Part shown: positions 5,901 through 51,982 of the stretch, one piece after another
How positions within the stretch are numbered: position 1 is the first letter of the stretch
How the letters are laid out: the number at the start of each line of letters is the position of its first letter
From: a virus
Lineage: Duplodnaviria; Caudoviricetes
Virus record (IMG/VR): IMGVR_UViG_3300038988_000082
Location: 1-52,344 of that record
Length of the DNA stretch: 52,344 nucleotides
Strand: one strand, 5' to 3'
Position numbers and translations under genes: made by a program
Notes under the pieces: generated by a model
Databases searched by the model: none
What the model was told of the DNA's origin: nothing
What the model saw: only the letters and a program-made list of their open reading frames with translations

Positions 5901-5925
5901 AGCGAAATAAACCACTTCCTTTATG
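5901..5925 (+). promoter_or_regulatory. Phage promoter-like motif, variant copy (AGCG-N6-ACC-N9-ATG)
   Basis: Same spacing as the CGCG-N6-ACA-N9-ATG family; intergenic. Confidence 0.55.
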
Positions 5926-5951
5926 AAGTAACAATTAAAGAGGTGTGAATT

Positions 5952-6104
5952 GTGACAATAATATTCGAAAAGGATAACAGCATGTCAAAAAACAAGAAAC
6001 GAGGAACAGGAGGATTAATCTTAGATTTGATTTTAGTATTTTGTACAAGTGGGGTATGGCTTGTCTGGATACTGATTCGATATTTAAGGAACGGTCACGG
6101 CTAA
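5952..6104 (+). CDS. Small membrane protein, not in ORF track (start GTG 5952 or ATG 5982)
   Basis: MSKNKKRGTGGLILDLILVFCTSGVWLVWILIRYLRNGHG; GAGGTG RBS before the GTG. Confidence 0.65.
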   Translation: MTIIFEKDNSMSKNKKRGTGGLILDLILVFCTSGVWLVWILIRYLRNGHG

Positions 6105-6136
6105 TTTAATTGAAAATTGAAAGGAAAATTAATAAA

Positions 6137-6622
6137 ATGAAGAAAATTTTAGGTTTAATGATGGTTGTATTGATACTATTATTAACGGCCTGCTCGATGC
6201 AGGCAGCACCTGTGAATCCGAATTACAAACCGGATGTGCAAACACCGGCACCTACAATGGAGCCGGAAACAGTTCAGGAAACGCCGACAGTGGCGCCTGT
6301 GAAGACTGAGGAATCAGTCGATCCCGATGTATTATATGCGGGAATGATTCCGGATCCTGCGGCTATATTTGCCAACGGAGACGTAACCATCACAGATAGT
6401 GATGGAGGAAAGGCTTATATATTTGAGGTGACCGGTTATAATACTGAAGAGTATGAAACCTACATATCTCAATGTAAAGAGATGGGGTTTACTGACGTAT
6501 CATTTGAAACCGACGAAGACTTTGGAGCATATTCTGAAGATGGTCGTTATTGGGTTCAATTAAGTATAGACAATGACAAGGATATTCTATACGTGATATG
6601 CCAAACGAGTAGAAACAAGTAG
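6137..6622 (+). CDS. Lipoprotein
   Basis: Signal peptide MKKILGLMMVVLILL followed by lipobox LTAC, a Pro/Thr/Glu linker and an acidic domain. Confidence 0.82.
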   Translation: MKKILGLMMVVLILLLTACSMQAAPVNPNYKPDVQTPAPTMEPETVQETPTVAPVKTEESVDPDVLYAGMIPDPAAIFANGDVTITDSDGGKAYIFEVTGYNTEEYETYISQCKEMGFTDVSFETDEDFGAYSEDGRYWVQLSIDNDKDILYVICQTSRNK

Positions 6623-6634
6623 GCTTATAAGACT

Positions 6635-8844: not shown

Positions 8845-9138
8845 CTGCCCATTTTGTGTTTAGAAAGTGGGCATATTTGGGTATTTTGCCCGGTTTTGTT
8901 TAAAGTAGTTGTGAGGACGGTGGTGATTTCTCATAAAAATTCACTCAAAACCGGGTTTTCTGCCCACTTTTATGGCCAAAAAGCCCACTTTTAAAAGTGA
9001 AAGTGGGCACGAAAAATGGCTTTAAATAGGGCAAAAACGGCATTTTAGCCCACTTGCCCACTTTATTTCTCAATTAATTGTGATAAAAAAATTAATAATA
9101 TATAATAGTATCTCAAAAAAAGTGGGTTTTTGGGCAGA
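8845..9138. repeat. Cluster of GCCCACTT/AAGTGGGC direct and inverted repeats with AT-rich tract; probable replication origin
   Basis: GCCCACTT at 8962, 8983, 9048, 9056; reverse copies at ~8865, 9001, ~9120; variants at 8847, 8888; AT-rich 9064-9120. Confidence 0.7.
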
Positions 9139-9364: not shown

Positions 9365-9389
9365 CGCGAAAAAAACAGCCCCTTTTATG
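9365..9389 (+). promoter_or_regulatory. Phage promoter-like motif CGCG-N6-ACA-N9-ATG
   Basis: CGCG AAAAAA ACA GCCCCTTTT ATG. Confidence 0.75.
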
Positions 9390-9442
9390 GAGAGAAGGAA
9401 GATTAAAAGACCGACTTTCGGATTATAATCCCTCTCTCTTTT
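9389..9442 (+). ncRNA. Short structured RNA or leader hairpin
   Basis: GAGAGAAGGA pairs with TCCCTCTCTC, inner CCGA-CTT-TCGG, followed by a T tract; begins at the end of the promoter motif. Confidence 0.4.
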
Positions 9443-9470
9443 ATTTTTGCTAAAAAGGGGGTTATGTAAC

Positions 9471-9791
9471 ATGCTAGAGAGTAAATTCAAGACTAAGTTG
9501 TGTAAGGAACTAAAAACCATGTTTCCTGGTTGCATGATCCTTCATGGAGATGCAAATAAGATTCAAGGAGTTCCTGACCTACTTATTCTCTATAAGAAAC
9601 GGTGGGCGTCGTTAGAAGGAAAACAATCCAAAGATGCTCCTGCTCAACCAAACCAACCGTACTATGTGGATAAGATGAACAAAATGTCATTTTCTCGGTT
9701 CATATATCCGGAGAATAAAAAGGAGGTATTAGATGAACTTCAACAAGCATTCAGACCTCGAAGGGCAGCACGCCTTCCTAGGGGCGAGTAA
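9471..9791 (+). CDS. VRR-NUC family nuclease (Holliday junction resolvase-like)
   Basis: MLESKF..., QGVPDLL, SLEGK, QPNQ pattern. Confidence 0.78.
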   Translation: MLESKFKTKLCKELKTMFPGCMILHGDANKIQGVPDLLILYKKRWASLEGKQSKDAPAQPNQPYYVDKMNKMSFSRFIYPENKKEVLDELQQAFRPRRAARLPRGE

Positions 9792-10290
9792 ATATCATTG
9801 GGTGAACTATGACGAAGCAAAAGTTATAGAATCATTTTCAAGGTTTATGGCTGCTCAAAGAGGCACCGAATTACATGCTTTTGCTGCTATTTGTATAAGA
9901 TTAGGTCAAAAGTTACCTAAGTGTAAAAAAACATTAAATATGTATGTCAATGATGCAATAGGGTTCAAGATGAGACCCGAGCAGATTCTATATTACTCGG
10001 ATAATTGTTTTGGAACTGCCGACACTATATCTTTTAGAAATGATCTTCTTCGTATTCACGATTTTAAGAGTGGTGTTACACCAACTAAAATGGAGCAGCT
10101 TAAAATATATGATGCTCTCTTTTGTTTGGAGTATCGTATCAAACCATCTGAAATTGATCATGAATTACGGATATATCAATCTGATGAGGTATTGTATCAT
10201 AAGCCGACACCAGATGAAATTATGGCAATTTGTGACAAAATTGTATTGTTTGATAAGATCATAACTAAGATTAGAGCAGAGGAGGAATGA
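9733..10290 (+). CDS. PD-(D/E)XK (Cas4/RecB-like) nuclease
   Basis: GTELH, FGTADTI, IHDFKSG and QLKIY motifs; AAGGAGG RBS. Confidence 0.75.
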   Translation: MNFNKHSDLEGQHAFLGASKYHWVNYDEAKVIESFSRFMAAQRGTELHAFAAICIRLGQKLPKCKKTLNMYVNDAIGFKMRPEQILYYSDNCFGTADTISFRNDLLRIHDFKSGVTPTKMEQLKIYDALFCLEYRIKPSEIDHELRIYQSDEVLYHKPTPDEIMAICDKIVLFDKIITKIRAEEE

Positions 10291-13019
10291 CCATGGATTT
10301 TATCGAGGACGACATTTTAGCCCATTATGGAATGAAGTATCGGTCTGGTCGATATCCTTGGGGTTCCGGAGATCATCCGTATCAACATAGTGGAGATTTT
10401 CTTAGCAGAGTTGAAGAACTCTCTAAAAATGGCATAAGCCAAGTTGAGTTGGCAAAACAAATGGGTATGACCACGACCGAGTTGCGCATGCAGCTTCGAG
10501 TCGCTAAGCACGAACGTAAGAACCTTGATGCCGATCGGGCGCAGTCTCTTAGAGATGATGGAAAGAGTTATAATAAGATAGCAAAAATTTTGGGGTACAA
10601 GAATGAGTCTTCTATTCGGTCTCTTTTAAATGAAAATTCGCAAGCTAACCGTAATAAGGCTAGAGTTACTGCGGATATTCTTAAAAATGAGATAGAGAAG
10701 AAGGGCATGCTCGATGTTGGCGTTGGCGTTGAAAGACAGCTTGGGGTTTCGCCTGGTGTTCTCCAGGAAGCTTTATTTATTCTTCGAACAGAAGGATATG
10801 AAGTGTATGGAATAGGCATTCAACAAGTGAATAACCCTGGAAAGCAATCAAATACCGCAGCTCTCTGTATGCCCGGAACCACATATAAACAAGCTTATGA
10901 AAAACTCAATGCTGGTGATCTTGAATCTGTCGGGGACTATCATTCTAGAGATGGTGGGAAGTCTTTTGATAAAAGAGAATACCCTTCAAGCATAGACTCA
11001 AGTCGTGTTGGCATTCGGTATGGCGATGAAGGCGGATCGTTAAAAGATGGTGTGATTGAAATAAGGCGTGGCGTACCAGATTTAGATTTAGGTAACTCTC
11101 ATTATGCACAAGTTCGTATATTGGTTGATGGAACCCATTATCTCAAAGGAATGGCTATGTATTCGGATGATATTCCTGATGGTGTGGATATTATGTTCAA
11201 TACCAATAAGAAAACCGGTACTCCTAAAACCGATGTCATGAAGCCTATAGGAAAGGATCCTGATAATCCGTTTGGAGCTTATATTAAAGCTGATGGTCAG
11301 AGTAAATATGATGACCCAAATGGAAAATATATTGATCCTGTTACTGGAAAGAAGCAGTCGCTTTCGGCTATTAATAAACTGAAAGAAGAAGGCGATTGGG
11401 ATTCAATGGCTCGAAACTTGTCTTCTCAGTTCTTATCTAAGCAGCCTATGAAGCTGATAAAGACTCAACTAGATTTGACATATGCCGATGCACAAGCAAC
11501 GTATGATGAAATAAAAAATCTAAATAATCCAACAGTTAAACGGAAAATGCTTATTGACTTTGCTGATGGGTGCGATGCAGCAGCCGTTCATTTGAAAGCG
11601 GCCTCACTCCCTCGTCAAAGAACACAAGTTATTTTACCAATAACCTCTATGAAGGAAAATGAAGTTTACGCTCCGAACTTTAAAGATGGAGAAACGGTAG
11701 CGTTAGTTCGATATCCTCATGGTGGAACATTTGAAATACCGGTGTTAACAGTTAATAATAAGAACAAGGGTGCTCAGAGTATTCTTGGTAAAAACATTAA
11801 GGATGCTATAGGCATCAATTCTAAGGTAGCTGAAAGGCTCTCTGGTGCCGACTTTGATGGGGATCAAGTAGCGGTTATACCAATTAATGATAAGGTTAGG
11901 ATTAAATCCACACCGCCTTTGAAGGCTCTTGTAGGGTTTAACGCTAAAGATCAATATGCTATTCCTGAGGGAAATCCCAAGAAGGTTCCAGTTATGACTA
12001 AGGCTAACACCCAGAAACAAATGGGTATGATTTCTAACCTTATAACAGACATGACCCTTAAGGGTGCCCCTGAAAGCGAGATAGCTAGAGCGGTTAAGCA
12101 TAGTATGGTCGTCATTGACGCAGCTAAGCATAAACTCGACTATAAGCAATCAGAGAAGGACAATGGTATTGCGGCACTTAAGAAGACCTATCAAGGGTAC
12201 ATTAAGGATGATGGTACAGAAGCCGGTGGTGCTTCAACCCTTCTTTCAAGAAGAAAGCAAACAATTGCTGTACCTGAACGACAAGGTAGTGGCCGAATTG
12301 ATAAGGAGACAGGTAAGGTGGTTTATAACACATCAGGTAGAACCTATGTGGATAAGACTGGAAAAAGAGTCCCCGCCACAACAAAAGTACATCTGATTAA
12401 TCAAGTAGACGATGTCCGGTCCTTGTCATCAGGAACACCCCAAGAAAACGCTTATGCTGATTATGCAAACAAAATGAAAGCGTTAGCCAATCAAGCTAGA
12501 AAAGAGTACATGACTACAGGTCGATTAGTGGCCTCTAGTAGTGCGAAGGAAACCTATAAGGCGGAGGTTGCTAAACTAAACGCCGACTTAAACATTGCGC
12601 TCATGAACGCCCCCCGTGAAAGGAAGGCTCAAGCCATAGCTAACTCCGTAGTAAAGGCAAAAAAACAAGATAACCCCGCTATGGATAAAGAGGAACAAAG
12701 AAAAGTTGGTCGTCAGGCACTGTATGATGCAAGGCATGCTGTTGGAGCCAGTGGTAAAGAAACACGCATCACCATTACCGATAGACAATGGGAAGCTATC
12801 CAGGCTGGAGCTATTACAGATACCAAGCTTACTCAGATCCTACGCTATACAGACCCTGATGTTATCAAGCAGCTAGCAACACCAAGAACAAGCACCCAAC
12901 TTTCTACAGCTAAAGCTAATAAGCTTAAGACTATGAAAGCATCCGGGTACTATACAAATGAAGAGATCGCCCAGTCTTTGGGTGTATCAGTATCAACAGT
13001 TAATAATTACAAGGGCTGA
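10287..13019 (+). CDS. Single-chain two-barrel (DPBB) RNA polymerase-like protein with terminal HTH domains
   Basis: Catalytic-loop motif LSGADFDGD (GADFDGD at 11844-11864), upstream VRYP (RYP at 11709), QVRI...LKG (11109-11150); two N-terminal HTH-like segments and a C-terminal TNEEIAQSLGVSVSTV. Confidence 0.8.
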   Translation: MTMDFIEDDILAHYGMKYRSGRYPWGSGDHPYQHSGDFLSRVEELSKNGISQVELAKQMGMTTTELRMQLRVAKHERKNLDADRAQSLRDDGKSYNKIAKILGYKNESSIRSLLNENSQANRNKARVTADILKNEIEKKGMLDVGVGVERQLGVSPGVLQEALFILRTEGYEVYGIGIQQVNNPGKQSNTAALCMPGTTYKQAYEKLNAGDLESVGDYHSRDGGKSFDKREYPSSIDSSRVGIRYGDEGGSLKDGVIEIRRGVPDLDLGNSHYAQVRILVDGTHYLKGMAMYSDDIPDGVDIMFNTNKKTGTPKTDVMKPIGKDPDNPFGAYIKADGQSKYDDPNGKYIDPVTGKKQSLSAINKLKEEGDWDSMARNLSSQFLSKQPMKLIKTQLDLTYADAQATYDEIKNLNNPTVKRKMLIDFADGCDAAAVHLKAASLPRQRTQVILPITSMKENEVYAPNFKDGETVALVRYPHGGTFEIPVLTVNNKNKGAQSILGKNIKDAIGINSKVAERLSGADFDGDQVAVIPINDKVRIKSTPPLKALVGFNAKDQYAIPEGNPKKVPVMTKANTQKQMGMISNLITDMTLKGAPESEIARAVKHSMVVIDAAKHKLDYKQSEKDNGIAALKKTYQGYIKDDGTEAGGASTLLSRRKQTIAVPERQGSGRIDKETGKVVYNTSGRTYVDKTGKRVPATTKVHLINQVDDVRSLSSGTPQENAYADYANKMKALANQARKEYMTTGRLVASSSAKETYKAEVAKLNADLNIALMNAPRERKAQAIANSVVKAKKQDNPAMDKEEQRKVGRQALYDARHAVGASGKETRITITDRQWEAIQAGAITDTKLTQILRYTDPDVIKQLATPRTSTQLSTAKANKLKTMKASGYYTNEEIAQSLGVSVSTVNNYKG

Positions 13020-13033
13020 AAGGAGGAATAGAT

Positions 13034-13291
13034 GTGGCTAAATGCGCATTATCAACTATTGATAATCCGTTTGATCCTTTTGATCAGTTTGACCAGTGGT
13101 ATAACTTTGATTTAGACCGGGGCTACAGTTCTTGTTCCTTCTTAGATCGAGTTGCAAGAACTTCTGATCAACTTTCAGAAGAAGAAAACGATGCAGAAAT
13201 TGAAAGAGCAATTGATGAAATTGTTAAGTATGACTTTCAAAACATCTACATCAAAGTAAAACAAAAGACAGAAGAATCAATTGATGTTTAA
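13034..13291 (+). CDS. Acidic hypothetical protein
   Basis: AGGAGG RBS, GTG start, 85 aa. Confidence 0.75.
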   Translation: MAKCALSTIDNPFDPFDQFDQWYNFDLDRGYSSCSFLDRVARTSDQLSEEENDAEIERAIDEIVKYDFQNIYIKVKQKTEESIDV

Positions 13292-13467
13292 TAAAACAAA
13301 GTTTAAAGACAATTAAATACTATAAAGTATAATTGTCACGGCGCAATAGCTTTTAATTCTAAGAAAGGACAAATGTAAGTATGAATAAATATTGTTTTTT
13401 AAATAATTTTGTTCAAAGTCTTACAGATCGTTCTCACTAATTACCATCATAAGTTATTAACGGGATA

Positions 13468-13548
13468 TAGGGGGGTCGCAAAAAAAAGCACCCCCTCCTG
13501 TCATCGCCGGCCCCCTAAAAAATTCCCCGGGGGTATATTTTTTAAAAA
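13468..13548. other. Candidate genome terminus / packaging (cos/pac) region
   Basis: Alternating G/C and A/T runs (GGGGGGTCGCAAAAAAAAGCACCCCCT...AAAAAATTCCCCGGGGG) in the largest intergenic gap, upstream of the packaging genes. Confidence 0.45.
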
Positions 13549-13564
13549 CAATCCACTATTCGTA

Positions 13565-13676
13565 TGACTTTTAAGCGGGCTTGGGGAGGGTTCGGGCGGT
13601 AGCATAAACAAAGCTTTTTACTTTTTCTCCTTTCAATAAAAGAGGCAGTCAACTTTCCAGGCCTGTTTAAAAGTTA
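13565..13676 (+). ncRNA. Long hairpin RNA with anti-RBS loop
   Basis: 24 contiguous pairs (13565-13588 with 13653-13676), 6 of them G-U; loop contains TTTTTACTTTTTCTCCTTTCAATAA. Confidence 0.6.
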
Positions 13677-13749
13677 AACAAAACTGTGGTCGAAGTATGT
13701 CAAAACTATACTAAAAGTTATTAGCAATAATTAATGAGGAGGGAAGAAC

Positions 13750-14328
13750 ATGTCAAAAAATCTAGATCAAATAGACCTCTTATATTTAATGAGTAAAATA
13801 AAATCTATGTTATACCCCGTAGGAACAATATATATGACAACAGAAAACATAAACCCTGCAGAAATGTTTGGCGGAACCTGGGTAGCATGGGGATCGGGCA
13901 GAGTTCCGGTCGGCGTGGATACTAGTCAAACCGAATTTAATACGGTTGAAAAAACCGGAGGGCATAAAGCCACAGAACAACATACCCATGTTCAGAATAG
14001 TCATACACATTCTCAGAATAGTCATAGTCATGGTGATAATTTTTCAGTTGCTACTGGAGGCGCACATACTCATAATGTTAAATGGAGGGACGGTGCTGCA
14101 TCTGGCAGTTTATATTTTTTACGCCGTGATGACCCGTCGGATAGTTATAACGGTACAAACGCCGCTGCGATGAGCGGAGGGTCTCATAGTCATACACTAA
14201 ACGGGTCGGTATCTTCTGCAACCGCCACAAATAATTCGACAACCGCCACAAATCAAGACTTTGGAACAGGTAATGCTGGCAACCTCCAACCGTTTATAAC
14301 TTGTTATATGTGGAAAAGGACAGCTTAA
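13750..14328 (+). CDS. Baseplate/tail-fibre-tip-like protein (T4 gp10/gp12 C-terminal-like) with HxH motifs
   Basis: YPVGTIY...NPAEMFGGTW...GRVPVGVD...TGG, repeated HTH/HSH tripeptides, NLQPFITCYMWKRTA. Confidence 0.75.
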   Translation: MSKNLDQIDLLYLMSKIKSMLYPVGTIYMTTENINPAEMFGGTWVAWGSGRVPVGVDTSQTEFNTVEKTGGHKATEQHTHVQNSHTHSQNSHSHGDNFSVATGGAHTHNVKWRDGAASGSLYFLRRDDPSDSYNGTNAAAMSGGSHSHTLNGSVSSATATNNSTTATNQDFGTGNAGNLQPFITCYMWKRTA

Positions 14329-38727: not shown

Positions 38728-38752
38728 CGCGGAAAAAACAAAGTACTTTATG
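38728..38752 (+). promoter_or_regulatory. Phage promoter-like motif
   Basis: CGCG GAAAAA ACA AAGTACTTT ATG. Confidence 0.75.
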
Positions 38753-38791: not shown

Positions 38792-39028
38792 ATGGCTGGA
38801 TACAAAAAGGGGTCTAAGGCAATGGAGGATATGTTAGTAAGAAGGTTCGGCAATGATTTGAGAAAAATTTACGAAAAAGCTCCTCAAGCGGAGAAAGAAA
38901 TCGTAACTTTGGCCAAACACATTGGCGAAGTTCTTGACACTTATCTGGATACGCAGCAGAACGAAGAGATTGGCCTTGCAATATTTCTTATTGATAAGGA
39001 TAACAAAGTTACAGAGATCGAGCCTTAA
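38792..39028 (+). CDS. Hypothetical cassette protein
   Basis: AAGAGG RBS before ATG 38792; stop codon lies inside the repeat hairpin. Confidence 0.7.
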   Translation: MAGYKKGSKAMEDMLVRRFGNDLRKIYEKAPQAEKEIVTLAKHIGEVLDTYLDTQQNEEIGLAIFLIDKDNKVTEIEP

Positions 39029-39069
39029 CAAGGGCTCTTTCTTTCGCGAAAAAAACATGATGTATAATG
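39020..39069 (+). repeat. Cassette junction: terminator hairpin plus promoter motif
   Basis: GAGCCTTAACAAGGGCTCTTTCTTT then CGCG AAAAAA ACA TGATGTATA ATG. Confidence 0.8.
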
Positions 39070-39137
39070 AAGAATAGCTCAGATGGGAGAGCACTAGCAT
39101 AGTCTAGAGGTCAAGGGTTCAAGTCCCTTTTCTTTTT
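39068..39137 (+). tRNA. tRNA-like RNA with shortened anticodon arm (pseudo-tRNA or mimic)
   Basis: D arm TAGCTCAGATGGGAGAGCA, T arm AAGGG-TTCAAGT-CCCTT, acceptor GAAGAA/TTCTTT; anticodon arm CTAG-CATAGT-CTAG is 14 nt rather than 17; no CCA. Confidence 0.65.
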
Positions 39138-39158
39138 ATTTTTGAAAGGAGAATTATT

Positions 39159-39377
39159 ATGTTACTACTTGGAATCGGAATTGGTATTATTATCGGAGCA
39201 GTCGTAATGATATTTTTGTTACGGGAACGCCCAGTCGGTTTTCTTATGGTGAACAACCAAGATAAGGAAGAAGATCCCTATTTATTTTTAGAGTTAACAA
39301 GCGATGTCCAGACGGTCTGTAAGAAATCGTATATCAGGCTCAAAGTTAACAAAAAAGGTTATACTCCGCAAGAATAA
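39159..39377 (+). CDS. Small membrane protein
   Basis: GAAAGGAG RBS; N-terminal TM helix. Confidence 0.75.
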   Translation: MLLLGIGIGIIIGAVVMIFLLRERPVGFLMVNNQDKEEDPYLFLELTSDVQTVCKKSYIRLKVNKKGYTPQE

Positions 39378-39391
39378 CAACGTCTTTTATG
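39367..39391 (+). promoter_or_regulatory. Phage promoter-like motif
   Basis: CGCA AGAATA ACA ACGTCTTTT ATG. Confidence 0.7.
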
Positions 39392-39840: not shown

Positions 39841-39903
39841 GGGGTACTGTGTTGGTCACACGGTATCTTCTTTCCTCTCGCGATAAAAACAGTTCCCTTT
39901 ATG
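39841..39903 (+). repeat. Cassette junction: hairpin plus promoter motif (CGCG at 39879)
   Basis: GGTACTGTG/CACGGTATC hairpin and T tract, then CGCG ATAAAA ACA GTTCCCTTT ATG. Confidence 0.7.
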
Positions 39904-40300: not shown

Positions 40301-40356
40301 GAGCCGAACAAAGGCTCTTTTCTTTTTAATTCGCGGAAAAAACAAAGCACTTTATG
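40301..40356 (+). repeat. Cassette junction: terminator plus promoter motif (CGCG at 40332)
   Basis: GAGCCGAACAAAGGCTCTTTT then CGCG GAAAAA ACA AAGCACTTT ATG. Confidence 0.8.
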
Positions 40357-40522: not shown

Positions 40523-40566
40523 CAAGGGCTCTTTCATTTTGCGCGAGATTAACATCTCCTATTGTG
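40514..40566 (+). repeat. Cassette junction: terminator plus promoter motif (CGCG at 40542)
   Basis: GAGTACTAACAAGGGCTCTTT then CGCG AGATTA ACA TCTCCTATT GTG. Confidence 0.78.
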
Positions 40567-40825: not shown

Positions 40826-40868
40826 CAAGGGCTCTTTCTTTTTCGCGTAAAAAACAAGGTCTATAATG
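40817..40868 (+). repeat. Cassette junction: terminator plus promoter motif (CGCG at 40844)
   Basis: GAGTCCTAACAAGGGCTCTTTCTTTTT then CGCG TAAAAA ACA AGGTCTATA ATG. Confidence 0.8.
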
Positions 40869-41048: not shown

Positions 41049-41150
41049 CAAGGGCTCTTTAGTTTCTCGCGATATTTGCTAAAGGTATCCAAAGAACGGA
41101 GCCAAGCAAAGGCTCTTTAGTTTCTCGCGATATTTACATGTTGTATTGTG
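41040..41150 (+). repeat. Two tandem cassette junctions (one empty) ending in a promoter motif at 41126
   Basis: GGCTCTTTAGTTTCTCGCGATATTT occurs at 41053 and 41111; second copy continues ACA TGTTGTATT GTG. Confidence 0.78.
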
Positions 41151-41218
41151 AGAGAAGGTTGTCCTAGAAATAGGATAAGATTAATAGCGCTGTGTAGCGG
41201 TTAATTGAACGTTCTCTC
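41150..41218 (+). ncRNA. Three-way-junction small RNA
   Basis: Closing stem GAGAGAAGGTT/AACGTTCTCTC; hairpins GTCCTA-GAAA-TAGGAT and ATTAAT..CGCT-GTGT-AGCG-GTTAAT. Confidence 0.55.
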
Positions 41219-41245
41219 TAAGTTTTGTTGAAAGGAGAAAAGTAT

Positions 41246-42047: not shown

Positions 42048-42072
42048 CGCGAGATTTACAATTTGTTTAATG
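42048..42072 (+). promoter_or_regulatory. Phage promoter-like motif
   Basis: CGCG AGATTT ACA ATTTGTTTA ATG. Confidence 0.72.
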
Positions 42073-43769: not shown

Positions 43770-43794
43770 CGCGAAAAAAACACAGTACTTTATG
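43770..43794 (+). promoter_or_regulatory. Phage promoter-like motif
   Basis: CGCG AAAAAA ACA CAGTACTTT ATG. Confidence 0.75.
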
Positions 43795-44092: not shown

Positions 44093-44125
44093 GAGGGGCA
44101 CTGACAACACAGTGTCTTCTCTTTC
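44093..44125 (+). terminator. Terminator-like hairpin
   Basis: GAGGGGCACTG-ACAACA-CAGTGTCTTCTC-TTTC. Confidence 0.6.
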
Positions 44126-44150
44126 TCCTTATATTTTAGGAGGGAACATA

Positions 44151-44348
44151 ATGAACACATATTCATATAAAGGGCCTGTGAAATCGTTTGGGACGTGTAT
44201 TGCGGATAAGTGGGAAGGCTCCACACGGGCCATTTCAGAAGCTAAGGCTAGATCTAACCTGGCCTATCAATATAAAAAGGGGCACAACCTTTCTGCGGAT
44301 GCGTATATTACGTTGCCGGGCAAGCTTGTCCTTGAGAAGGAGGAATAA
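44151..44348 (+). CDS. Hypothetical protein
   Basis: AGGAGGG RBS before ATG 44151 (MNTYSYKGPV...). Confidence 0.72.
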   Translation: MNTYSYKGPVKSFGTCIADKWEGSTRAISEAKARSNLAYQYKKGHNLSADAYITLPGKLVLEKEE

Positions 44349-44352
44349 AAGA

Positions 44353-44958
44353 GTGGATTACAAACCTAATTCGCACAGGTCAAAAGAAGAACCTGACGAA
44401 CAAGCCCCGGAAAAAAAAGTAGAAAAAGCCGTTGTCAGTAATGCCAGAGTGAAGAAAAAAGGTGAATTGAGAAAGTTTGCGGACGTCTTTATATCTGAGG
44501 ATGTCAAAAACGTCAAGTCGTACGTTATTCTTGGAGTGCTAGTGCCGGCAATAAAGAAAGCCATTTCAGATATCATTACCAATGGTATTGATATGATTCT
44601 TTATGGAGAGTCCGGGCGAACAAAAAGGAACTCAATGGCATCGAGAGTTTCTTATCGAAACTATTATGATCGGGATAAAGGTCGCACTGACTATTTGGCA
44701 CAGCGTACAAGAACGGGGTACAGTTATGACGATGTATATTTTGATACCCGTGGGGAAGCCGAAGAGGTGTTGTCCAGAATGGACGAACTCATATCTACGT
44801 ATGATATGGTAAGCGTCGCCGATTTGTACGACCTTGTCGGGGTGTCAAGCAATTATACTGACAACAACTACGGATGGACAAACCTGAAGAGCGCATCCGT
44901 TGAACGCGGCAGGGATGGATATTATCTTAAACTGCCGAAGATTATATCTTTGAAATAA
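44353..44958 (+). CDS. Hypothetical phage protein
   Basis: AAGGAGG RBS before GTG 44353; SVADLYDLVG...YGWT shares the C-terminal pattern of the DUF6353-like proteins. Confidence 0.75.
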   Translation: MDYKPNSHRSKEEPDEQAPEKKVEKAVVSNARVKKKGELRKFADVFISEDVKNVKSYVILGVLVPAIKKAISDIITNGIDMILYGESGRTKRNSMASRVSYRNYYDRDKGRTDYLAQRTRTGYSYDDVYFDTRGEAEEVLSRMDELISTYDMVSVADLYDLVGVSSNYTDNNYGWTNLKSASVERGRDGYYLKLPKIISLK

Positions 44959-45059
44959 GGAGATATTGCCATGGAATATATTAAATTGATTGCTATCTTT
45001 ATAGCAGGGATATCAGATTGTATTTCCAGAAGCGACAATTATAGATTTAGGAGGAAAAG

Positions 45060-46013
45060 TTGATGAAAAATAAGGAGTTCCTTGGTAAAGTGACCAAGGC
45101 TTTCAGTAAATTCGGGTTTACGTTGAAAAAGCATAGCCCGGAGATTCTTTTGGCATCGGGTATTGTCGGTGTAGTTACAGCGGCCGTGATGGCATGCAAA
45201 GCAACTACCAAGGTTGGCGACGTTATGGATACGGCCAAGAAGAATATCGATATTATTCACGAAACGACAGACAACGAGTCCAAAGAGCTGGTTCCGCAGG
45301 AAGTGCGGACAAAAGCCCTGGCAAAGGTATATTTGCAGACCGGTCTTAAGCTTGTAAAGCTGTATGGGCCTTCAGTTGCGGTGGGTGCGCTGTCCATCAC
45401 CGGAATTTTGGCATCGAATAATATCCTTCGCAAAAGGAACATGGCGCTTGCGGCGGCATATCTGGCCGTGGATAAAGGCTTCAAAGAATATCGGGCCCGG
45501 GTGGTTGATCGATTCGGCGAAACCGTTGATCATGAACTCAGATACGACATCAAGACGGAAACCGTCGAAAAGACAGAGATTGATCCGGAAACGGGAAAGA
45601 AAAAGAAGGTCAAGGAGACGGTTAAGGTCGCAAATCCGGATGCACCGGGAAGCGTGTATGCACGATATTTTGATCAGGACACGACACCGGCATGGGAAAA
45701 CAATTCAGAATATAATCTTATGTTCTGTAAGGCTCAGCAGAAGTTCGCAAATGATACGCTCCAGAGCAATGGTCATATATTCTTGAATGAGGTGTATGAC
45801 ATGCTCGGCTTGGAGAGATCTGTTGCGGGCAATGTCGTTGGTTGGACATTCGTCGAGAACGGAAAAAATCCTAATGGCGACAACTATGTCGATTTCGGCA
45901 TATTTGAGGTCAATAGACCCGATGGAAATGGTGGATTCGCGCCTACGATACTCCTTGACTTCAACGTTGACGGAGATATCTTGAATACGGGCGCCATATC
46001 CACTGATATTTGA
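45060..46013 (+). CDS. DUF6353-like protein, paralog 3
   Basis: HSPEILLASGIVG...ACKATT...FLNEVYDMLG...VGW...LDFNVDG. Confidence 0.78.
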   Translation: MMKNKEFLGKVTKAFSKFGFTLKKHSPEILLASGIVGVVTAAVMACKATTKVGDVMDTAKKNIDIIHETTDNESKELVPQEVRTKALAKVYLQTGLKLVKLYGPSVAVGALSITGILASNNILRKRNMALAAAYLAVDKGFKEYRARVVDRFGETVDHELRYDIKTETVEKTEIDPETGKKKKVKETVKVANPDAPGSVYARYFDQDTTPAWENNSEYNLMFCKAQQKFANDTLQSNGHIFLNEVYDMLGLERSVAGNVVGWTFVENGKNPNGDNYVDFGIFEVNRPDGNGGFAPTILLDFNVDGDILNTGAISTDI

Positions 46014-47467: not shown

Positions 47468-50400
47468 ATGATCGATTTTTTAATGATTTCAACGCGAAGC
47501 ACAAAGCGCGGCGTAATCGAAATCTATCCGAAATTTATCATTAAGAAAAGCTCCGATCTCATGATTCGCGGAGGGGATTTTTATGCTATTTGGATAGAGG
47601 AACGGGGTTTATGGTCCACCGACGAGCAGGATGCTTTGCAGTTGATAGACCGTGAACTGGATAAATATGCAGAGGAAAACAAACGCGCTTTCGACGCAAA
47701 CGTTAAAGTCCTTCATATGTGGGATGCTGAATCTGGAATGATCGATTCCTGGCACAAATACTGCCAAAAACAGATGCGGGATTCCTTTCATATGCTCGAT
47801 GAAAAGCTTATATTCTCCAATACCAAAACCAACAAAAAGGATTACGCCAGCAAGAAATTGCCCTATCCACTTGAAGCTGGGGACCTGACGGCCTACGACA
47901 CGCTTATGTCAACTTTATATTCTGAAGAAGAAAGGCACAAGCTCGAATGGGCTATCGGGTCTATTGTGTCTGGAGAATCTAAGAAGCTTCAAAAGTTCAT
48001 AGTTTTGTATGGAGCAACCGGAACTGGTAAGTCTACAGTTCTCAATATTATTCAACAGCTATTTGAAGGCTATTATTCGGTGTTTGATGCTAAGGCTCTT
48101 GGTTCCGCCAATAGCTCATTTGCATTAGAGCCTTTCAAGGCTAACCCATTGGTAGCTATTCAGCATGATGGCGATTTGTCTAGAATTGAGGATAACACAA
48201 GGCTGAACAGTCTGGTTTCGCATGAGATGATGACTGTGAATGAAAAGTTTAAATCGGCATATGCTAATCAGTTTAAATGCTTCCTATTTATGGGAACAAA
48301 TAAACCGGTAAAAATTACCGATGCAAAATCCGGTCTTATTCGAAGGCTGATTGACGTATCTCCTTCCGGAAATAAAGTAGACCAAAAAGAATACCGAACA
48401 CTTGTGAAACAGATAGGTTTTAACCTAGGGGCCATTGCCCAGCATTGTTTAGAGGTATATTTGGATGACCCGAATCATTATGATGATTATATTCCGATTG
48501 GAATGCTTGGGGCTTCGAACGACTTCTATAACTTTGTAATTGACTCATATTACGTGTTCAAAAAAGAAGACGGGACTACATTAAAAGCGGCTTGGGAAAT
48601 GTATAAAACCTATTGTGAGGATGCTAAAGTGCAATTCCCATTTTCGCAACGCATATTTAAGGAGGAACTTAAAAACTATTTCCAGGACTACAAAGAACGT
48701 GTGAATATGGAAGATGGGTCACGGGTACGTAGTTTCTATAAAGGGTTTCGAACTGATAGATTTGAGGATGCTCTTGTCGGGAAGAAAAAAGAGACTGCAC
48801 GAGTTAGGTTAATTAAATTTGACTCGACAGAATCCATATTTGACAAGGAGTGCTCTGACTGTTTTGCTCAGTATGCTACTTCTAAAGAAACACCATCTAA
48901 AAAATGGTCAAATGTTACAACAAGACTTAGTGACCTTGACACATCCAGACTTCATTATGTAAAAGTCCCGGAAAATCATATTGTAATTGACTTCGATATT
49001 CCAGATGAGGATGGAAATAAAAGCCTTGAAAAGAATCTTGAAGCCGCAAGTAAATGGCCAGCAACTTATGCAGAGCTTAGTAAAAGTGGAATGGGGATTC
49101 ATCTTCATTATATTTATACAGGCGATGCAAATGAGTTGAGCCGTGTGTATGATGACCATATCGAAATTAAGATAGCTACTGGAGATGCATCATTGAGACG
49201 GAAATTGTCAAAGTGTAATGGTGTGCCAATAGCTAAGATTAGCTCTGGTTTACCGCTGAAAGGAGAGAAAAAGTTGGTTGATTTTAATGTGGTAAAGAGC
49301 GAAAGAGGGTTACGAGTCCAGATTAAGAGAAACCTTAATAAGGAATATCATCCTGGAACCAAACCCAGTATCGACTTTATCCATAAGATCCTTGAAGATG
49401 CATATGCAAGCGGGCTTATATATGATGTTACTGACATGAGAAATGCTGTTTTAGGCTTTGCCATGAATAGCACAAATCAAGCAGATTATTGTATTAAGCT
49501 TGTAAACAAAATGCATTTCAAGTCAGAAGATATATCAGCCGGAGCAAAAAATGATGATGCAAAAATAGTATTCTTCGACGTTGAGGTTTTTCCAAATCTG
49601 TTTTTGATTTGTTGGAAACTTGAAGGCGAAGGTAAGCAAATTGTAAAAATGTTTAACCCATCCCCTTCAGAAGTCGAAACCTTGATGAGATTTAAATTGG
49701 TTGGCTTCAACTGTCGTCGATACGATAATCATCTTGTATATGCTCGGTTGATGGGTTACACTGAAGAGCAACTCTATAACTTATCACAAAAAATAATTAA
49801 TGGTAGTACTAATTGTTTCTTTGGTGAAGCATACAACCTGTCCTATACGGATATTTATGACTTTTCTTCAAAGAAACAGTCTCTTAAGAAATTTGAGATT
49901 GACTTGAAGATTCACCATAAGGAACTCGGACTACCATGGGATCAACCCGTTCCGAGAGAACGTTGGGAAGAAGTTGGAGACTATTGCGCAAACGACGTAT
50001 TGGCGACGGAAGCCATATTTATTGATCGTCAACCAGACTTCTTGGCAAGGCAAATTCTAGCCGATTTAGCTGGAATGACAGTCAATGATACCACAAACAC
50101 TCTGACAACCAGAATTATATTTGGGACTAATCGTAAACCTCAAAACCAGTTTCACTATCGAAACTTGGCCGACCCAGTATTAGAACTTGATAAGGAAACC
50201 CGTGATTTCTTAACGGACGCGGCTCCAGCGATGATGGCTCAAAGACACGGTCCTGCAAAGAGCTTTCTTCCATATTTTCCTGGATACAAGTACGATGCTG
50301 GTAAATCTATTTATCGAGATGAGGAGATTGGAGAGGGGGGCTTAGTACGGGCTAAACCTGGTATGTACGGTGATGTAGCACTATTAGATGTTGTTTCAAT

Positions 50401-51475
50401 GCATCCGCATAGTGCTATATTAGAAGTCATATTTGGGGTTGAGTTCACAAGACGATTCAAAGAGATTGTTGATAGTCGAGTAAACATTAAACACAAAGCT
50501 TGGGATATTGTCAATAAAATGCTTGATGGAAAGCTGGCACTGTATATTCAGAGGGTAATCAATGGTGAATTAACGGCTAAGGACTTAGCCTTTGCCTTAA
50601 AGATTGCCATTAACTCCGTGTATGGTTTGACATCGGCAAGCTTCGAGAATCCTTTCCGAGATATTCGGAACAAGGATAATATCGTTGCAAAACGTGGCGC
50701 CTTATTTATGCTTGATCTCAAGTATGAAGTCGAGGCTCGAGGCTTTACGGTTGCTCATATTAAGACTGACTCTATAAAGATTCCAAACGCAACTCCGGAG
50801 ATTATACAGTTTGTTTCGGACTTTGGGGCTTTATATGGGTATGAGTTTGAGCATGAGGCGACATATGACAAGTTCTGTCTAGTGAATGATGCTGTATATA
50901 TTGCCAAGTATGCTACAAAAGAAAAGTGTATGGGCCTGTACGGCTATATTCCTGGCGAGAACGAGAAGCACCAAAGACAAATTGAGGATGTTGTAACTGG
51001 CGGTCCTGATTATGAGTCTGGTGAATGGACAGCTACAGGTACCCAGTTTGCAGTTCCTTATGTATTTAAGACTCTCTTCAGTAAGGAAGAAATCGTATTT
51101 GATGATATGTGCGAGACCAAGTCGGTGACATCTGCATTATATTTGGATATGAATGAAAACCTTGGTGAAGACGAACATAATTATCGGTTTATTGGAAAGG
51201 TTGGACAATTCTGTCCGATTAAAAAAGGGTTCGGCGGCGGGGTTCTTCTTCGTGAAAAGAATGGGAAATACTATGCTGCCGGTGGCTCAAAAGGATATAG
51301 ATGGCTCGAGTCTGAAATGGTGAAAGAACTTGGTAAAGAAGATGACATTGATAGAGCATATTATGAGGCTTTTGTTCAAGCCGCACGGGATGCTATATGG
51401 GAATATGGCGATGTCGAGTGGTTCACTTCAGATCAAGAGTATAGTCCAAATGACAATGGGATTCACCCGTTTTAA
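47468..51475 (+). CDS. SF3 (D5-like) helicase-primase-family B DNA polymerase fusion
   Basis: YGATGTGKST Walker A; primase-like VIDFD...SKSGMGIHLHY; Exo I FFDVEV, Exo II GFN..RYD, Exo III YCANDV; PolB motif A DVVSMHP, B KIAINSVYG, C HIKTDS. Confidence 0.88.
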   Translation: MIDFLMISTRSTKRGVIEIYPKFIIKKSSDLMIRGGDFYAIWIEERGLWSTDEQDALQLIDRELDKYAEENKRAFDANVKVLHMWDAESGMIDSWHKYCQKQMRDSFHMLDEKLIFSNTKTNKKDYASKKLPYPLEAGDLTAYDTLMSTLYSEEERHKLEWAIGSIVSGESKKLQKFIVLYGATGTGKSTVLNIIQQLFEGYYSVFDAKALGSANSSFALEPFKANPLVAIQHDGDLSRIEDNTRLNSLVSHEMMTVNEKFKSAYANQFKCFLFMGTNKPVKITDAKSGLIRRLIDVSPSGNKVDQKEYRTLVKQIGFNLGAIAQHCLEVYLDDPNHYDDYIPIGMLGASNDFYNFVIDSYYVFKKEDGTTLKAAWEMYKTYCEDAKVQFPFSQRIFKEELKNYFQDYKERVNMEDGSRVRSFYKGFRTDRFEDALVGKKKETARVRLIKFDSTESIFDKECSDCFAQYATSKETPSKKWSNVTTRLSDLDTSRLHYVKVPENHIVIDFDIPDEDGNKSLEKNLEAASKWPATYAELSKSGMGIHLHYIYTGDANELSRVYDDHIEIKIATGDASLRRKLSKCNGVPIAKISSGLPLKGEKKLVDFNVVKSERGLRVQIKRNLNKEYHPGTKPSIDFIHKILEDAYASGLIYDVTDMRNAVLGFAMNSTNQADYCIKLVNKMHFKSEDISAGAKNDDAKIVFFDVEVFPNLFLICWKLEGEGKQIVKMFNPSPSEVETLMRFKLVGFNCRRYDNHLVYARLMGYTEEQLYNLSQKIINGSTNCFFGEAYNLSYTDIYDFSSKKQSLKKFEIDLKIHHKELGLPWDQPVPRERWEEVGDYCANDVLATEAIFIDRQPDFLARQILADLAGMTVNDTTNTLTTRIIFGTNRKPQNQFHYRNLADPVLELDKETRDFLTDAAPAMMAQRHGPAKSFLPYFPGYKYDAGKSIYRDEEIGEGGLVRAKPGMYGDVALLDVVSMHPHSAILEVIFGVEFTRRFKEIVDSRVNIKHKAWDIVNKMLDGKLALYIQRVINGELTAKDLAFALKIAINSVYGLTSASFENPFRDIRNKDNIVAKRGALFMLDLKYEVEARGFTVAHIKTDSIKIPNATPEIIQFVSDFGALYGYEFEHEATYDKFCLVNDAVYIAKYATKEKCMGLYGYIPGENEKHQRQIEDVVTGGPDYESGEWTATGTQFAVPYVFKTLFSKEEIVFDDMCETKSVTSALYLDMNENLGEDEHNYRFIGKVGQFCPIKKGFGGGVLLREKNGKYYAAGGSKGYRWLESEMVKELGKEDDIDRAYYEAFVQAARDAIWEYGDVEWFTSDQEYSPNDNGIHPF

Positions 51476-51490
51476 GAAAGGAGAAACAAA

Positions 51491-51955
51491 ATGGCTTATC
51501 AACGTATACCAAAACTTAAAATTGAGGATGCTCGGATTATATTCCGAAACTTCTCAGGCAAAGAGGGCCCTTACAATAGGGCTGGAGATCGTAGCTTTAA
51601 TGTAATCATTGAAGACCCCGAACTCGCGGAAACGCTCGCGGCGGATGGCTGGAACATTAAAACCTTACCCAAAAGGGATGAGGATGAAACACCGAATCAT
51701 CGCCTTGAGGTGGCTGTGTCATACAAGAAAATCCCGCCGAACATTACGTTGGTTTCGGGGCATAAGAAAGTCCGCCTGGACGAAGAAGCGGTCAATGCTT
51801 TGGATTACGCCGACATCGAGTCGGTTGATCTGCTGATAAATCCTTCATATTGGGAAGTCAATGGCAAGACCGGAATCAAGGCATATCTGTACGAGATGTA
51901 TGTTGTCGTAAGACAGGACGAGTTCGCGGACAAGTACGCCGGTTATGACGAATGA
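51491..51955 (+). CDS. Single-stranded DNA-binding protein (putative)
   Basis: Follows the polymerase; IIFRNFSG...G.KAYL, acidic aromatic C-terminus. Confidence 0.65.
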   Translation: MAYQRIPKLKIEDARIIFRNFSGKEGPYNRAGDRSFNVIIEDPELAETLAADGWNIKTLPKRDEDETPNHRLEVAVSYKKIPPNITLVSGHKKVRLDEEAVNALDYADIESVDLLINPSYWEVNGKTGIKAYLYEMYVVVRQDEFADKYAGYDE

Positions 51956-51957
51956 TT

Positions 51958-51982
51958 CGCGACATTTTCTCTGCCCTTTATG
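51958..51982 (+). promoter_or_regulatory. Phage promoter-like motif, variant copy
   Basis: CGCG ACATTT TCT CTGCCCTTT ATG, same spacing as the other copies. Confidence 0.6.

Follow-up and report, generated by a model that had tools for sequence, protein, structure and literature searches.

The genome analysed here (the window, all 52,344 nucleotides of a complete phage record) carries a short sequence that recurs with fixed spacing between genes, which raises the question of whether the sequence is a promoter and, if so, which RNA polymerase starts there. We put the probability at roughly 65% that the motif is the so far undescribed promoter of the phage's own 910-aa polymerase, judging from the sequences compared below. 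We take this reading to be the most likely one because phages that are related but infect very different bacteria have the signal and the polymerase in common.

The motif, originally described as CGCG-N6-ACA-N9-RTG, proved to be real, with 10 exact matches in the window compared to 0.09 expected from dinucleotide shuffles (0 of 100 shuffles reached 10). The exact matches, at 9365, 38728, 39045, 39879, 40332, 40542, 40844, 41126, 42048 and 43770, are all on the + strand, and the reversed pattern has no match in the window. Allowing one mismatch added a CGCA variant at 39367, together with two - strand matches in the window (26239 and 30393), in line with the chance level of 2.8. A weight matrix trained on 11 sites over positions -3 to +28 and applied to both strands of the entire window returned exactly the 13 + strand copies listed in the original prediction, at 20.6-40.5 bits, with a runner-up at 15.0 bits and nothing above 17 bits on the - strand. 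The two weakest sites, 5901 (AGCG...ACC) and 51958 (...TCT), carry two mismatches each and retain the remainder of the signal. Two partial copies did not hold up: the one at 38685 lacks the downstream box, and the one at 41068 is left over from the duplication in tandem of 58 bp at a terminator-promoter junction, a duplication that is absent from related phages. The predicted placement was confirmed, in that all 13 copies are located at ORF ends and none occurs at 13.7-38.6 kb, where the structural and lysis genes lie and the top score is 13.1 bits. The complete window consensus, TTCGCG-N6-ACA-N5-(T/C)(A/T)T(A/T)(A/G)T-G-(G/A)AA, is a 30-base signal and thus longer than the version first described, adding a T-rich stretch 5' of CGCG and G-(G/A)-A-A 3' of the box. 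Its information content spans motif frame -3 to +28, and the G after the box, hereafter the terminal G, is invariant. The box is mostly (C/T)TTTAT in the window clade and reads TATAAT in two copies (39045 and 40844), as had been noted.

The first copy, at 5901..5925 (28.4 bits; box CTTTAT, then G), lies between an upstream ORF (5610-5891) and a small downstream ORF. The second, at 9365..9389 (exact; 37.0 bits), stands at the head of an endonuclease-exonuclease-polymerase operon. From its terminal G at 9389 runs a leader hairpin (9389..9448, +; helix pairing nt 1-51; MFE -16.9 kcal/mol, z = -1.8), followed by UUUUAUUUUU. This hairpin looks like a promoter-proximal terminator or attenuator, and an analogous hairpin and U-run occurs in relatives L026, L027, L029, L033 and L034. 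The copy at 38728..38752 (exact; 40.5 bits) is the first past the lysis genes. The next, at 39045..39069 (exact; 36.9 bits), is preceded 7 nt upstream by an intrinsic-terminator-like hairpin, GAGCCTTAACAAGGGCTC plus a T-run (39020..39037, +), and leads into a tRNA-like gene with an irregular anticodon loop (39067..39138, +, with ends at 39067/8 and 39137/8; ARAGORN; Rfam tRNA, 44.7 bits), which starts at motif position 23-24 and has a T-run at its end. Further copies are at 39367..39391 (CGCA; 34.3 bits), 39879..39903 (exact; 36.9 bits), 40332..40356 (exact; 37.0 bits), 40542..40566 (exact; 33.8 bits; box TATTGT), 40844..40868 (exact; 37.8 bits), 41126..41150 (exact; 29.1 bits; box TATTGT), 42048..42072 (exact; 35.8 bits), 43770..43794 (exact; 36.3 bits) and, after an ssDNA-binding gene, 51958..51982 (TCT for ACA; 20.6 bits). 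Ribosome-binding sites directly follow the terminal G at 40332 (AAAGGAAGG) and at 42048 (AAAGGA), each with an SD offset of 3. The copy at 41126 is followed by a structured leader or small RNA (41150..41222, +; MFE -24.7 kcal/mol, z = -3.85), its stability being reached by none of 200 shuffles, whose closing helix extends from the terminal G to just before a U-rich tail, with a DUF6353 gene downstream. Comparable terminator-like hairpins lie at 39840-39870, 40301-40317, 40817-40834 and 41098-41116, and a terminator scan of the window gave 23 compared to 10.5 expected. A hairpin and U-run at unit ends is the classic signal of a host polymerase and counts against the phage-polymerase reading.

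One polymerase gene was found in the window. Its 910-aa product (10287..13019, +) is a predicted single-chain two-barrel RNA polymerase containing GADFDGD and matches phrog_4291 with E = 0. The motif D522-F-D-G-D526 is invariant in 35 sequences. Two HTH motifs lie near the N-terminus, and a C-terminal one resembles sigma region 4, residues 873-909 giving HTH and Sigma70_r4_2 matches. Sequence searches against solved structures found no match for the window polymerase, and its structural model (pLDDT 79) matched QDE-1 (E = 7e-10) as well as RDR2, P74 gp62 (E = 4.4e-6) and P23-45 gp96 (E = 3.5e-4). No T7-like polymerase was detected among the 30 window proteins scanned with Pfam and PHROGs. A 2021 preprint, where it treats this family, ties it to YonO-like enzymes and names it a putative polymerase (10.1101/842583); our literature search found no biochemistry on the family.

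The architecture cTCGC(G/A)-N5-TACA-N5-TATAAT-GAAA was present with the same spacing in 17/17 metagenomic relatives, at loci whose marker protein is 41-58% identical. The window and these relatives together hold 130 sites on the + strand, 119 of them unique, and 0 on the - strand. The polymerase is encoded in 12/17 of the relatives' records, the other five being fragments 30-71% complete. Faecalibacterium phage FP_oengus has 9 sites. Arthrobacter phage Kardesai has 11, of the form TCGCGTAAAT-TACA-N5-TATAAT-[GA]; ten of these lie at 24.4-31.3 kb past the structural genes and one at 53929 ahead of the polymerase operon, and none occurs in the structural region (1-24 kb). In Streptomyces phage Moozy the sites, of which there are at least 5, read TCGCA-N5-TAC(A/C)-N5-TATA(A/G)T-GAGACCCCTAC. 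The exception is Lactococcus phage P092, whose 5 sites show the core only (TACA-N5-TATAATG); its C-terminal HTH is kept and the CGCG box is missing. Each of these four phages encodes a polymerase of ~900 aa that is related to YonO and QDE-1 and has fused HTH domains. The position ahead of the polymerase operon holds a copy in FP_oengus (27684), in Kardesai and in 5/6 relatives with enough flank. FP_oengus is a prophage, and one metagenomic relative is classed as a provirus. Motif and polymerase are thus kept across phages of Firmicutes and Actinobacteria.

Co-occurrence of the motif with the DFDGD gene, as the original prediction would have it, extended to further phages. A stringent form of 19 bases, TCGCG-N5-TACA-N5-TATAATGAAA, matched 100 stretches in IMG/VR. 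Of the viral contigs with this form that had not already been examined, 30 are 40 kb or longer, and 29 of these encode the polymerase, among them 25/25 of those that are at least 90% complete; the background rate of the gene is 250/50,697 phage records (0.5%). This co-occurrence fits equally any other protein conserved in the phage lineage, and it does not separate relatedness from function. By our own estimate, which assumes uniform base composition, ~4 chance matches would be expected in the cellular genomes searched (bacteria and archaea; 596 Gb, 185,579 species), where 3 were found, and no polymerase orthologue was detected in the three matching genomes. The motif therefore does not appear to be a cellular promoter type.

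The features that follow the motif would place +1 at the terminal G. As predicted, three RNA structures in the window begin at or next to this base, namely the tRNA-like gene (39067/8) and the hairpins at 9389 and 41150 (z = -3.9 for the latter). Ten distinct tRNA or tRNA-like genes start at -2 to +8 from the terminal G, nine of these no later than +5, whereas the stretch from +9 to +60 holds no such start; one further tRNA-like gene, in FP_oengus, starts at +1. A ribosome-binding site starts 3-5 nt past the terminal G at 10/107 sites for which a binding site and a start codon were found, and in at least eight leaders the first base of the closing helix falls between -3 and +2 relative to the terminal G, with a U-run where the helix ends. 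With +1 at the terminal G, the TATAAT-like box would span -6 to -1, an arrangement that sigma-A geometry excludes. The start site of a sigma-70-type -10 hexamer lies roughly 6-9 nt downstream, and a start at that distance from the box would leave most if not all of the 11 tRNA-like genes without their 5' ends and cut the ribosome-binding site at 10/107 sites.

These positions bear directly on the alternative raised in the original prediction, that host sigma-A uses T(A/T)T(A/T)AT as a -10 element. In this case, TCGCG and TACA would bind a phage activator or a sigma-appropriating factor that replaces the -35, and the 910-aa protein would either be the factor in question or serve to transcribe other sequences. 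A +1 about 7 nt past the box would put CGCG near -30, like the MotA box of T4, but the leader helices start at the terminal G, and conservation does not stop at the box but takes in G(G/A)AA and, in Moozy, GAGACCCCTAC. The composition of the box points both ways. A perfect TATAAT is found at 81/119 unique sites of the window and 17 relatives, and position 2, where sigma-A depends on an A, is A at 101/119, whereas the prevailing window form departs from this, with A at position 2 in 4/13 window sites and 0/9 FP_oengus sites. Position 6 is an invariant T, and TGn occurs upstream of the box at some sites. As had been claimed, no TTGACA-like hexamer stands at sigma-A spacing in the window or FP_oengus; what stands there, 17 bp ahead of the box, is the T-rich terminator tail and the C of CGCG. 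Sigma-70-like sites were not enriched compared to shuffles (49 vs 40.9 and 31 vs 35.7). Intrinsic terminators bound the units, the polymerase operon is itself preceded by the motif, and temperate members must begin from host transcription, all of which would suit a host enzyme; against this, no MotA/AsiA-like or sigma-like gene was found among the 30 window proteins scanned. Use of the motif by host sigma-A with an activator is thereby weakened, and we consider it unlikely.

Less likely still is a dual use, in which sigma-A fires the motif weakly to make the first polymerase, for example at prophage induction, and the phage polymerase then takes over with its own start point. Such a scheme would explain how temperate members start up a polymerase operon that itself depends on the motif, which is otherwise circular, and it is consistent with a box that equals the sigma-A consensus in most relatives and with the hairpin terminator that always lies behind the polymerase-operon copy and could damp leakage. 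It is not required, however, since a separate sigma-A-like promoter, TTGTGA-17-TATAAT, lies in a repeat array 260 nt ahead of the 9365 copy and could account for the initial transcripts, and the boxes of the window clade make poor -10 elements.

It is very improbable that the motif has no promoter role and just happens to occupy intergenic positions, whether as a sequence that marks module boundaries or recombination points or as an array bound by a packaging or replication protein. In favour of this view, related phages in four metagenomic runs (contigs, probably DNA from relatives; no run recorded as RNA contains the phage) show breaks and new joints precisely at the borders of motifs or terminators, with one joint from 39044 to 43770 and loose ends at 40814-40844, and one terminator-promoter junction carries the 58-bp duplication. 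Against it, the strand bias is strict (130 vs 0), the placement is constant, with a terminator upstream and a ribosome-binding site, tRNA or structured RNA downstream, each small gene has its own copy, and recombination is an expected by-product at shared promoter/terminator cassettes identical in sequence.

The reading of the motif as a phage-specific promoter is supported by its strand specificity, its position at gene starts, its conservation with the DFDGD polymerase and the proxies for +1. We infer that the polymerase, rather than the host enzyme, initiates at the motif and, from gene content alone, that it does so at early or middle times. With the terminal G as +1, the TCGCG box would lie at about -25 to -21, followed by an A/T-rich spacer. 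Next would come (T/A)ACA at -15 to -12 and, beyond five bases that vary, the AT-rich element T(A/T)T(A/T)AT, which would occupy -6 to -1 and melt; G(G/A)AA would be the first transcribed bases. The TCGCG and (T/A)ACA boxes, which would be about one helical turn apart, may be read on duplex DNA by the fused HTH domains, in which case a single polypeptide would do the job of core plus sigma. Most units would be short, the promoter leading to a few small genes at most, or to a structured or tRNA-like RNA, and then to a hairpin and U-run, and the copy at 9365 would head the polymerase operon with the promoter-proximal hairpin terminator in between. Two further points sit less well with this reading. 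A motif that drives the polymerase's own operon, together with the existence of temperate members, implies that the first polymerase cannot always arrive with the virion and that some host-dependent expression must exist. Moreover, the lack of a copy in the 25-kb structural operon implies that the enzyme would not be the late-gene polymerase, unless it runs on from 9365 across joined ends.

A stronger version of this model, which we advance tentatively and at somewhat less than even odds, is a self-sufficient machine of ~900 aa, in which a two-barrel catalytic core is joined to HTH domains, one of them similar to sigma region 4. Without any host factor it would recognize a bipartite promoter on duplex DNA, open the box from -6 to -1 and initiate at a fixed G, and the hairpin before the polymerase operon would act as a switch to late expression across joined ends. 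If this version is true, one shared promoter grammar works in Actinobacteria and Firmicutes, and the tRNA-like and small structured RNAs are primary transcripts from +1.

The signal can be compared with several known systems. T4 middle promoters combine a sigma-70 -10 element with a MotA box at -30, MotA and AsiA replacing the -35. The window signal is similar in having a -10-like TATAAT without a -35 and a phage-specific box ~14 bp upstream. By contrast, its downstream features put +1 directly past the box, compared to ~7 nt further in T4, and it has TACA as an additional box and a start sequence that is conserved. T7, T3 and SP6 promoters are contiguous signals of 25-30 bp that run through +1. 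Their specificity elements lie upstream and are recognized in double-stranded form, a TATA-type box rich in A and T immediately precedes the +1 G, the start is purine-rich and conserved, and hairpin and U-run terminators end the units. On paper, the window signal would work in the same way on all these counts, being likewise contiguous through its proposed +1, with an AT-rich box directly before the +1 purine. However, the system lies outside the T7 family: the window polymerase is a two-barrel enzyme unrelated to the Pol-A right-hand fold, no T7-like polymerase was found among the 30 window proteins scanned, and upstream the signal is divided into two boxes whose gap varies, for which recognition by fused HTH domains is proposed.

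The enzyme itself resembles YonO of the Bacillus prophage SPbeta, a single-chain, DNA-dependent homologue of multi-subunit polymerases with a DxDGD loop. YonO has a single start site, from which it transcribes the late operon for structural and lysis genes, the promoter sequence being left undefined as far as the source describes it (PMC5467207). The window motif differs in being absent from the structural operon and in standing in many copies before small non-structural genes. In Thermus phage P23-45, the virion polymerase gp96 uses an AT-rich motif and the non-virion polymerase gp64 a GC-rich one, as assigned by ONT-cappable-seq and ChIP-seq, and the AT-rich motif, in that account, occurs only in relatives with a tape-measure-fused virion polymerase and is missing from relatives without one (PMC10770324). 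The window enzyme belongs to another family, with ~900 aa, three fused HTH motifs and a fold closest to QDE-1; it is encoded by the one polymerase gene found, and the hosts of the window's kin are Firmicutes and Actinobacteria. Start sites were measured in P23-45 and are inferred in the window, and the two systems are alike, by description rather than by motif logos, in pairing a single-chain two-barrel phage polymerase with its own conserved motif ahead of non-structural genes.

Thirteen copies of a fixed-spacing motif, CGCG-N6-ACA-N9-(A/G)TG, had been proposed as promoters for a phage RNA polymerase encoded in the window. Pattern searches gave 10 exact matches, all on the + strand, compared to 0.09 expected, and no match to the reversed pattern in the window; allowing one mismatch added the copy at 39367 and two - strand matches, the latter at chance level. 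A weight matrix covering positions -3 to +28 scored exactly the thirteen proposed sites at 20.6-40.5 bits and everything else at ≤15.0 bits, and it placed no site in the structural operon, in line with the earlier reading of the sequence. Neither of two proposed partial copies held up. The one at 41068 is part of a terminator-promoter junction duplicated over 58 bp (41053-41110); the duplication is absent from related-phage contigs of four metagenomic runs. The one at 38685 lacks the box. The core of the motif stood as described, but information content showed that the full signal is longer than claimed, comprising a T-rich run, CGCG, an A-rich N6, ACA, N5, (T/C)(A/T)T(A/T)(A/G)T, an invariant G, and (G/A)AA. 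At five sites, a hairpin and T-run ends ≤10 nt 5' of the motif, and a scan of the window found 23 terminators compared to 10.5 expected. Because the breaks and joints in related-phage contigs coincide exactly with the edges of motifs or terminators (joints 39044/43770 and 40814-40844), the common terminator-promoter cassettes seem to be recombination points for gene shuffling.

The window is a whole IMG/VR virus record (52,344 bases; linear; estimated completeness 85%), and all of its long ORFs are on the + strand. A helicase with an open 5' end (3-1199) is followed by small genes and a DHH phosphoesterase (to 8.8 kb), by endonuclease, exonuclease, 910-aa polymerase, and small conserved genes (9447-13291), by structural and lysis genes (13.7-38.6 kb, with the large terminase at 16850-18595), by a run of very small genes (38.7-44 kb), and by a block assigned to beyond 44 kb with three DUF6353 paralogues, a primase-polymerase, and an ssDNA-binding protein. 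The paralogues themselves (41225-42043, 42995-43762, and 45060-46013; Pfam E = 1e-62 to 5e-88) lie within 5 kb, two of the three directly 3' of motif copies. The primase-polymerase is a 1335-aa fusion (47468-51475; phrog_4210, with DUF5906) kept at the same relative position in phages FP_oengus, Kardesai, Moozy, and P092. A megablast search of window 38000-46000 against 50,697 phage records gave no matches.

The signal recurs in related phages. Each of 17 viral loci (41-58% identical), retrieved with a DUF6353 protein from the motif region, contained 3-14 matrix matches of ≥17 bits, and together with the window these gave 130 sites on the + strand and none on the - strand, 119 of them unique, with the family consensus cTCGC(G/A)-N5-TACA-N5-TATAAT-GAAA. 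The polymerase gene is present in the records of 12 of these 17 relatives, the other five being fragments that are 30-71% complete. Isolated phages from four host genera also carry the signal. In FP_oengus (Faecalibacterium), the 9 sites are of the window type, GACGCGAAAAAT(A/G)CA-N5-CTTTATGGAA. Kardesai, a complete Arthrobacter phage with the gene order of the window and the polymerase as the penultimate right-end gene, carries 11 sites that read TCGCGTAAAT-TACA-N5-TATAAT-[GA], of which 10 lie at 24.4-31.3 kb, each followed by a small gene, and the last (53929) lies 5' of the endonuclease-exonuclease-polymerase operon; its structural region (1-24 kb) has no motif site. The Kardesai phage region is ~45% G+C, and the Arthrobacter host is listed at 63.4% G+C in the accessible text of PMC5513430. 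The Arthrobacter phage motif was recovered only by a spaced pattern, not by k-mers, and the top strand-biased 8-mer, TGTAGGTA, was ruled out as a promoter, being mostly intragenic. In Moozy (Streptomyces; 61% G+C), at least 5 sites read TCGCA-N5-TAC(A/C)-N5-TATA(A/G)T-GAGACCCCTAC. Its signal (locus L150, 4743-8999) extends 11 nt beyond the box as GAGACCCCTAC, with 7 copies on the + strand and 1 on the - strand, suggesting that the initial transcribed sequence or a 5'-UTR element is conserved. P092 (Lactococcus) carries TTTTACA(C/T)ACCCTATAATG(A/G)A at 5 sites, without the CGCG box.

The premise that the phage encodes a two-barrel polymerase with HTH domains was borne out. Over its full length, the protein encoded at 10287-13019 matches phrog_4291, and it contains GADFDGD, with D522-F-D-G-D526 invariant in an alignment of 35 sequences. 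HTH matches, including Sigma70_r4_2, fall near residues 40-120 and 873-909, and many homologues have precomputed Sigma70_r4 matches. The AlphaFold model (pLDDT 79.2, pTM 0.69) matches QDE-1 (E = 7.4e-10) as well as plant RDR2, P74 gp62, P23-45 gp96, the crAss-like phi14:2 polymerase, and the largest subunits of cellular polymerases, and the sequence itself matches no PDB chain at E ≤ 1. Residues 1-35 (window 10287-10400) hold an invariant H-Y-G...S-G-R-Y-P-W-G-S-G that is disordered in the model (pLDDT < 50) and could act as a signal for docking or packaging. At least 8000 homologues were found at E ≤ 1e-20, and the gene is present in 250 of 50,697 phage isolate records, from Arthrobacter, Gordonia, Streptomyces, Lactococcus, Faecalibacterium, and other hosts, usually labelled only 'helix-turn-helix DNA-binding protein' or 'RNA-dependent RNA polymerase'. 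A 2021 preprint had already annotated this protein by HHpred as a putative polymerase and described it as a signature gene of this phage group; the word 'promoter' is absent from its accessible text (10.1101/842583).

A stringent 19-base form of the motif matched 100 stretches of IMG/VR. The test set consisted of all 30 contigs ≥40 kb long that were among the listed matches and not yet examined, shorter ones being left out, and the predicted co-occurrence with the DFDGD polymerase gene was found in 29 of the 30, and in 25 of 25 at ≥90% completeness. Bacterial and archaeal genomes (596 Gb) gave 3 matches compared to ~4 that we estimate by chance for uniform base composition; none of the three genomes encodes a polymerase orthologue, one having a weak 74-residue match on a different contig. 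Because the signal co-occurs with the polymerase and appears only at chance level in cellular genomes, it is a property of the phage lineage and not a cellular promoter type. The co-occurrence fits the polymerase and other lineage-specific proteins alike and does not separate them.

The start site was deduced from features 3' of the motif. ARAGORN found 10 distinct tRNA or tRNA-like genes ≤60 nt 3' of the motif in 143 loci, some overlapping, and these start at -2, 0, +1, +2, +3, +3, +4, +4, +5, and +8 from the terminal G, with none starting at +9 to +60; FP_oengus has one more tRNA-like gene, starting at +1. Genes placed at the promoter +1 are those at window 39067-39138, in relatives L055, L081, L096, L138, L009, L053, L061, L139, and L130, and at 2935-3006 of FP_oengus locus L046. 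Such genes end in a U-run in many phages of the family, and because they start at +1 and end in this way, their RNAs may be primary transcripts that need little processing. In several of these genes the anticodon loop is irregular (ARAGORN 'tRNA-???'), and two read as tRNA-Stop with anticodon tta. A ribosome-binding site starts 3-5 nt after the terminal G in 10 of the 107 unique sites with a binding site and start codon (12 others had none by the rule used), as in TATAATG-AAAAGGAGA followed by ATG. In at least 8 long leaders, a closing helix starts between -3 and +2 relative to the G and stops immediately 5' of a U-run; automatic folding was noisy and many 'leaders' were coding, so only clear cases were counted. 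No sequencing run was listed as an RNA source of the phage, and four wastewater runs labelled RNA-Seq (shares 0.07-0.10; relatives at 90-99% identity) were rejected as expression or 5'-end evidence, since they yielded contigs and were flagged as probably DNA. The tRNA starts, ribosome-binding sites, and leader helices all fit the predicted 5' end at or near the G. Sigma-70-type promoters start 6-9 nt after the -10 hexamer, and none of the three features is compatible with such a start. We conclude that the motif is very likely a promoter with +1 at the terminal G.

We favor the phage polymerase as the enzyme that reads this promoter, with a probability of roughly 0.65. The main rival holds that the host sigma-A polymerase uses the AT-rich box as a -10 element together with a phage activator. 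Across most relatives the box looks the part, being a perfect TATAAT in 81 of 119 unique sites, with A at position 2 in 101; yet in the window and FP_oengus it is mostly (C/T)TTTAT, with A at position 2 in only 4 of 13 and 0 of 9 sites, respectively. There is also no -35 element, and sigma-70-like sites are not in excess in the window. Transcription units ending in classic intrinsic terminators speak for the host enzyme, as do the motif at the head of the polymerase's own operon and the existence of temperate members, which together call for some host-dependent expression. ACA as a -35 element was ruled out by the lack of conservation 17 bp 3' of it, and TACAnn as a -10 element for a start at G by a final position without T. 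The HTH recognition helix, compared in C-terminal sequences, is nearly constant across CGCG, CGCA, GTCG, and box-less P092 phages, and its comparison with the box variants is uninformative.

The motif copy ahead of the polymerase operon (9365 in the window) is always followed from +1 by a hairpin and U-run of 25-60 nt (window 9389-9448; relatives L026, L027, L029, L033, and L034), a conserved feature that looks like a promoter-proximal terminator or attenuator and is reminiscent of lambda pR'-tR'. In three relatives this copy reads TATAAT-A-GA instead of TATAAT-G-AAA. A 280-bp stretch (8847-9127) immediately 5' of a small gene and of the 9365 promoter holds eight copies of the GCCCACTTT repeat in both orientations, five of them exact and three with a single mismatch; similar TTTGGCCAAAAACCCACTT repeats occupy the same syntenic place in FP_oengus (L046, 26905-27081), and the GCCCACTTT array could be a replication origin or operator array. 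Inside it, 260 nt 5' of the 9365 copy, a sigma-A-like TTGTGA-17-TATAAT (9078-9106) is a candidate source of host-dependent expression. The last right-end gene is separated from the first structural gene by 460 bp of non-coding DNA (13291-13750), at the place that genome ends occupy in isolated relatives. This stretch is probably the genome ends or cos region; it contains GC-rich hairpins (GGGGGGTCGC...ACCCCC, and CCCCC...GGGGG with a T-run) and a sigma-A-like AAGACA-16-TATAAT (13306-13333). That the structural operon has no motif copy also counts against the favored reading; this operon could be transcribed by run-on from 9365 over joined genome ends. No second conserved motif that could be a late promoter was found 5' of it.

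We found neither a promoter for this polymerase family nor an account of the motif in the full-text literature searched, which includes few subscription journals. The motif is probably a phage-polymerase promoter, of distinctive bipartite-plus-AT-box layout, for an uncharacterised and very widespread family. With a 30-bp signal and a predicted +1 in hand, the enzyme can be tested directly by run-off transcription, footprinting, or cryo-EM. A defined promoter would reveal how a two-barrel core recognizes promoters without a separate sigma, would permit annotation of transcription units in hundreds of phage genomes, and could supply both high- and low-G+C Gram-positive hosts with an orthogonal expression system.

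In the proposed layout, with G as +1, TCGCG would lie at about -25 to -21, (T/A)ACA one helical turn away at -15 to -12, and the AT-rich box at -6 to -1, and transcripts would start G(G/A)AA. On paper, this layout works like that of T7-class promoters, whose enzyme is unrelated to this polymerase. The YonO promoter is left undefined in the accessible text of PMC5467207. Among characterised systems, Thermus phage P23-45 comes closest: the accessible text describes two two-barrel polymerases, each with its own motif, as shown by start-site mapping, ChIP, and a comparison of relatives (PMC10770324).
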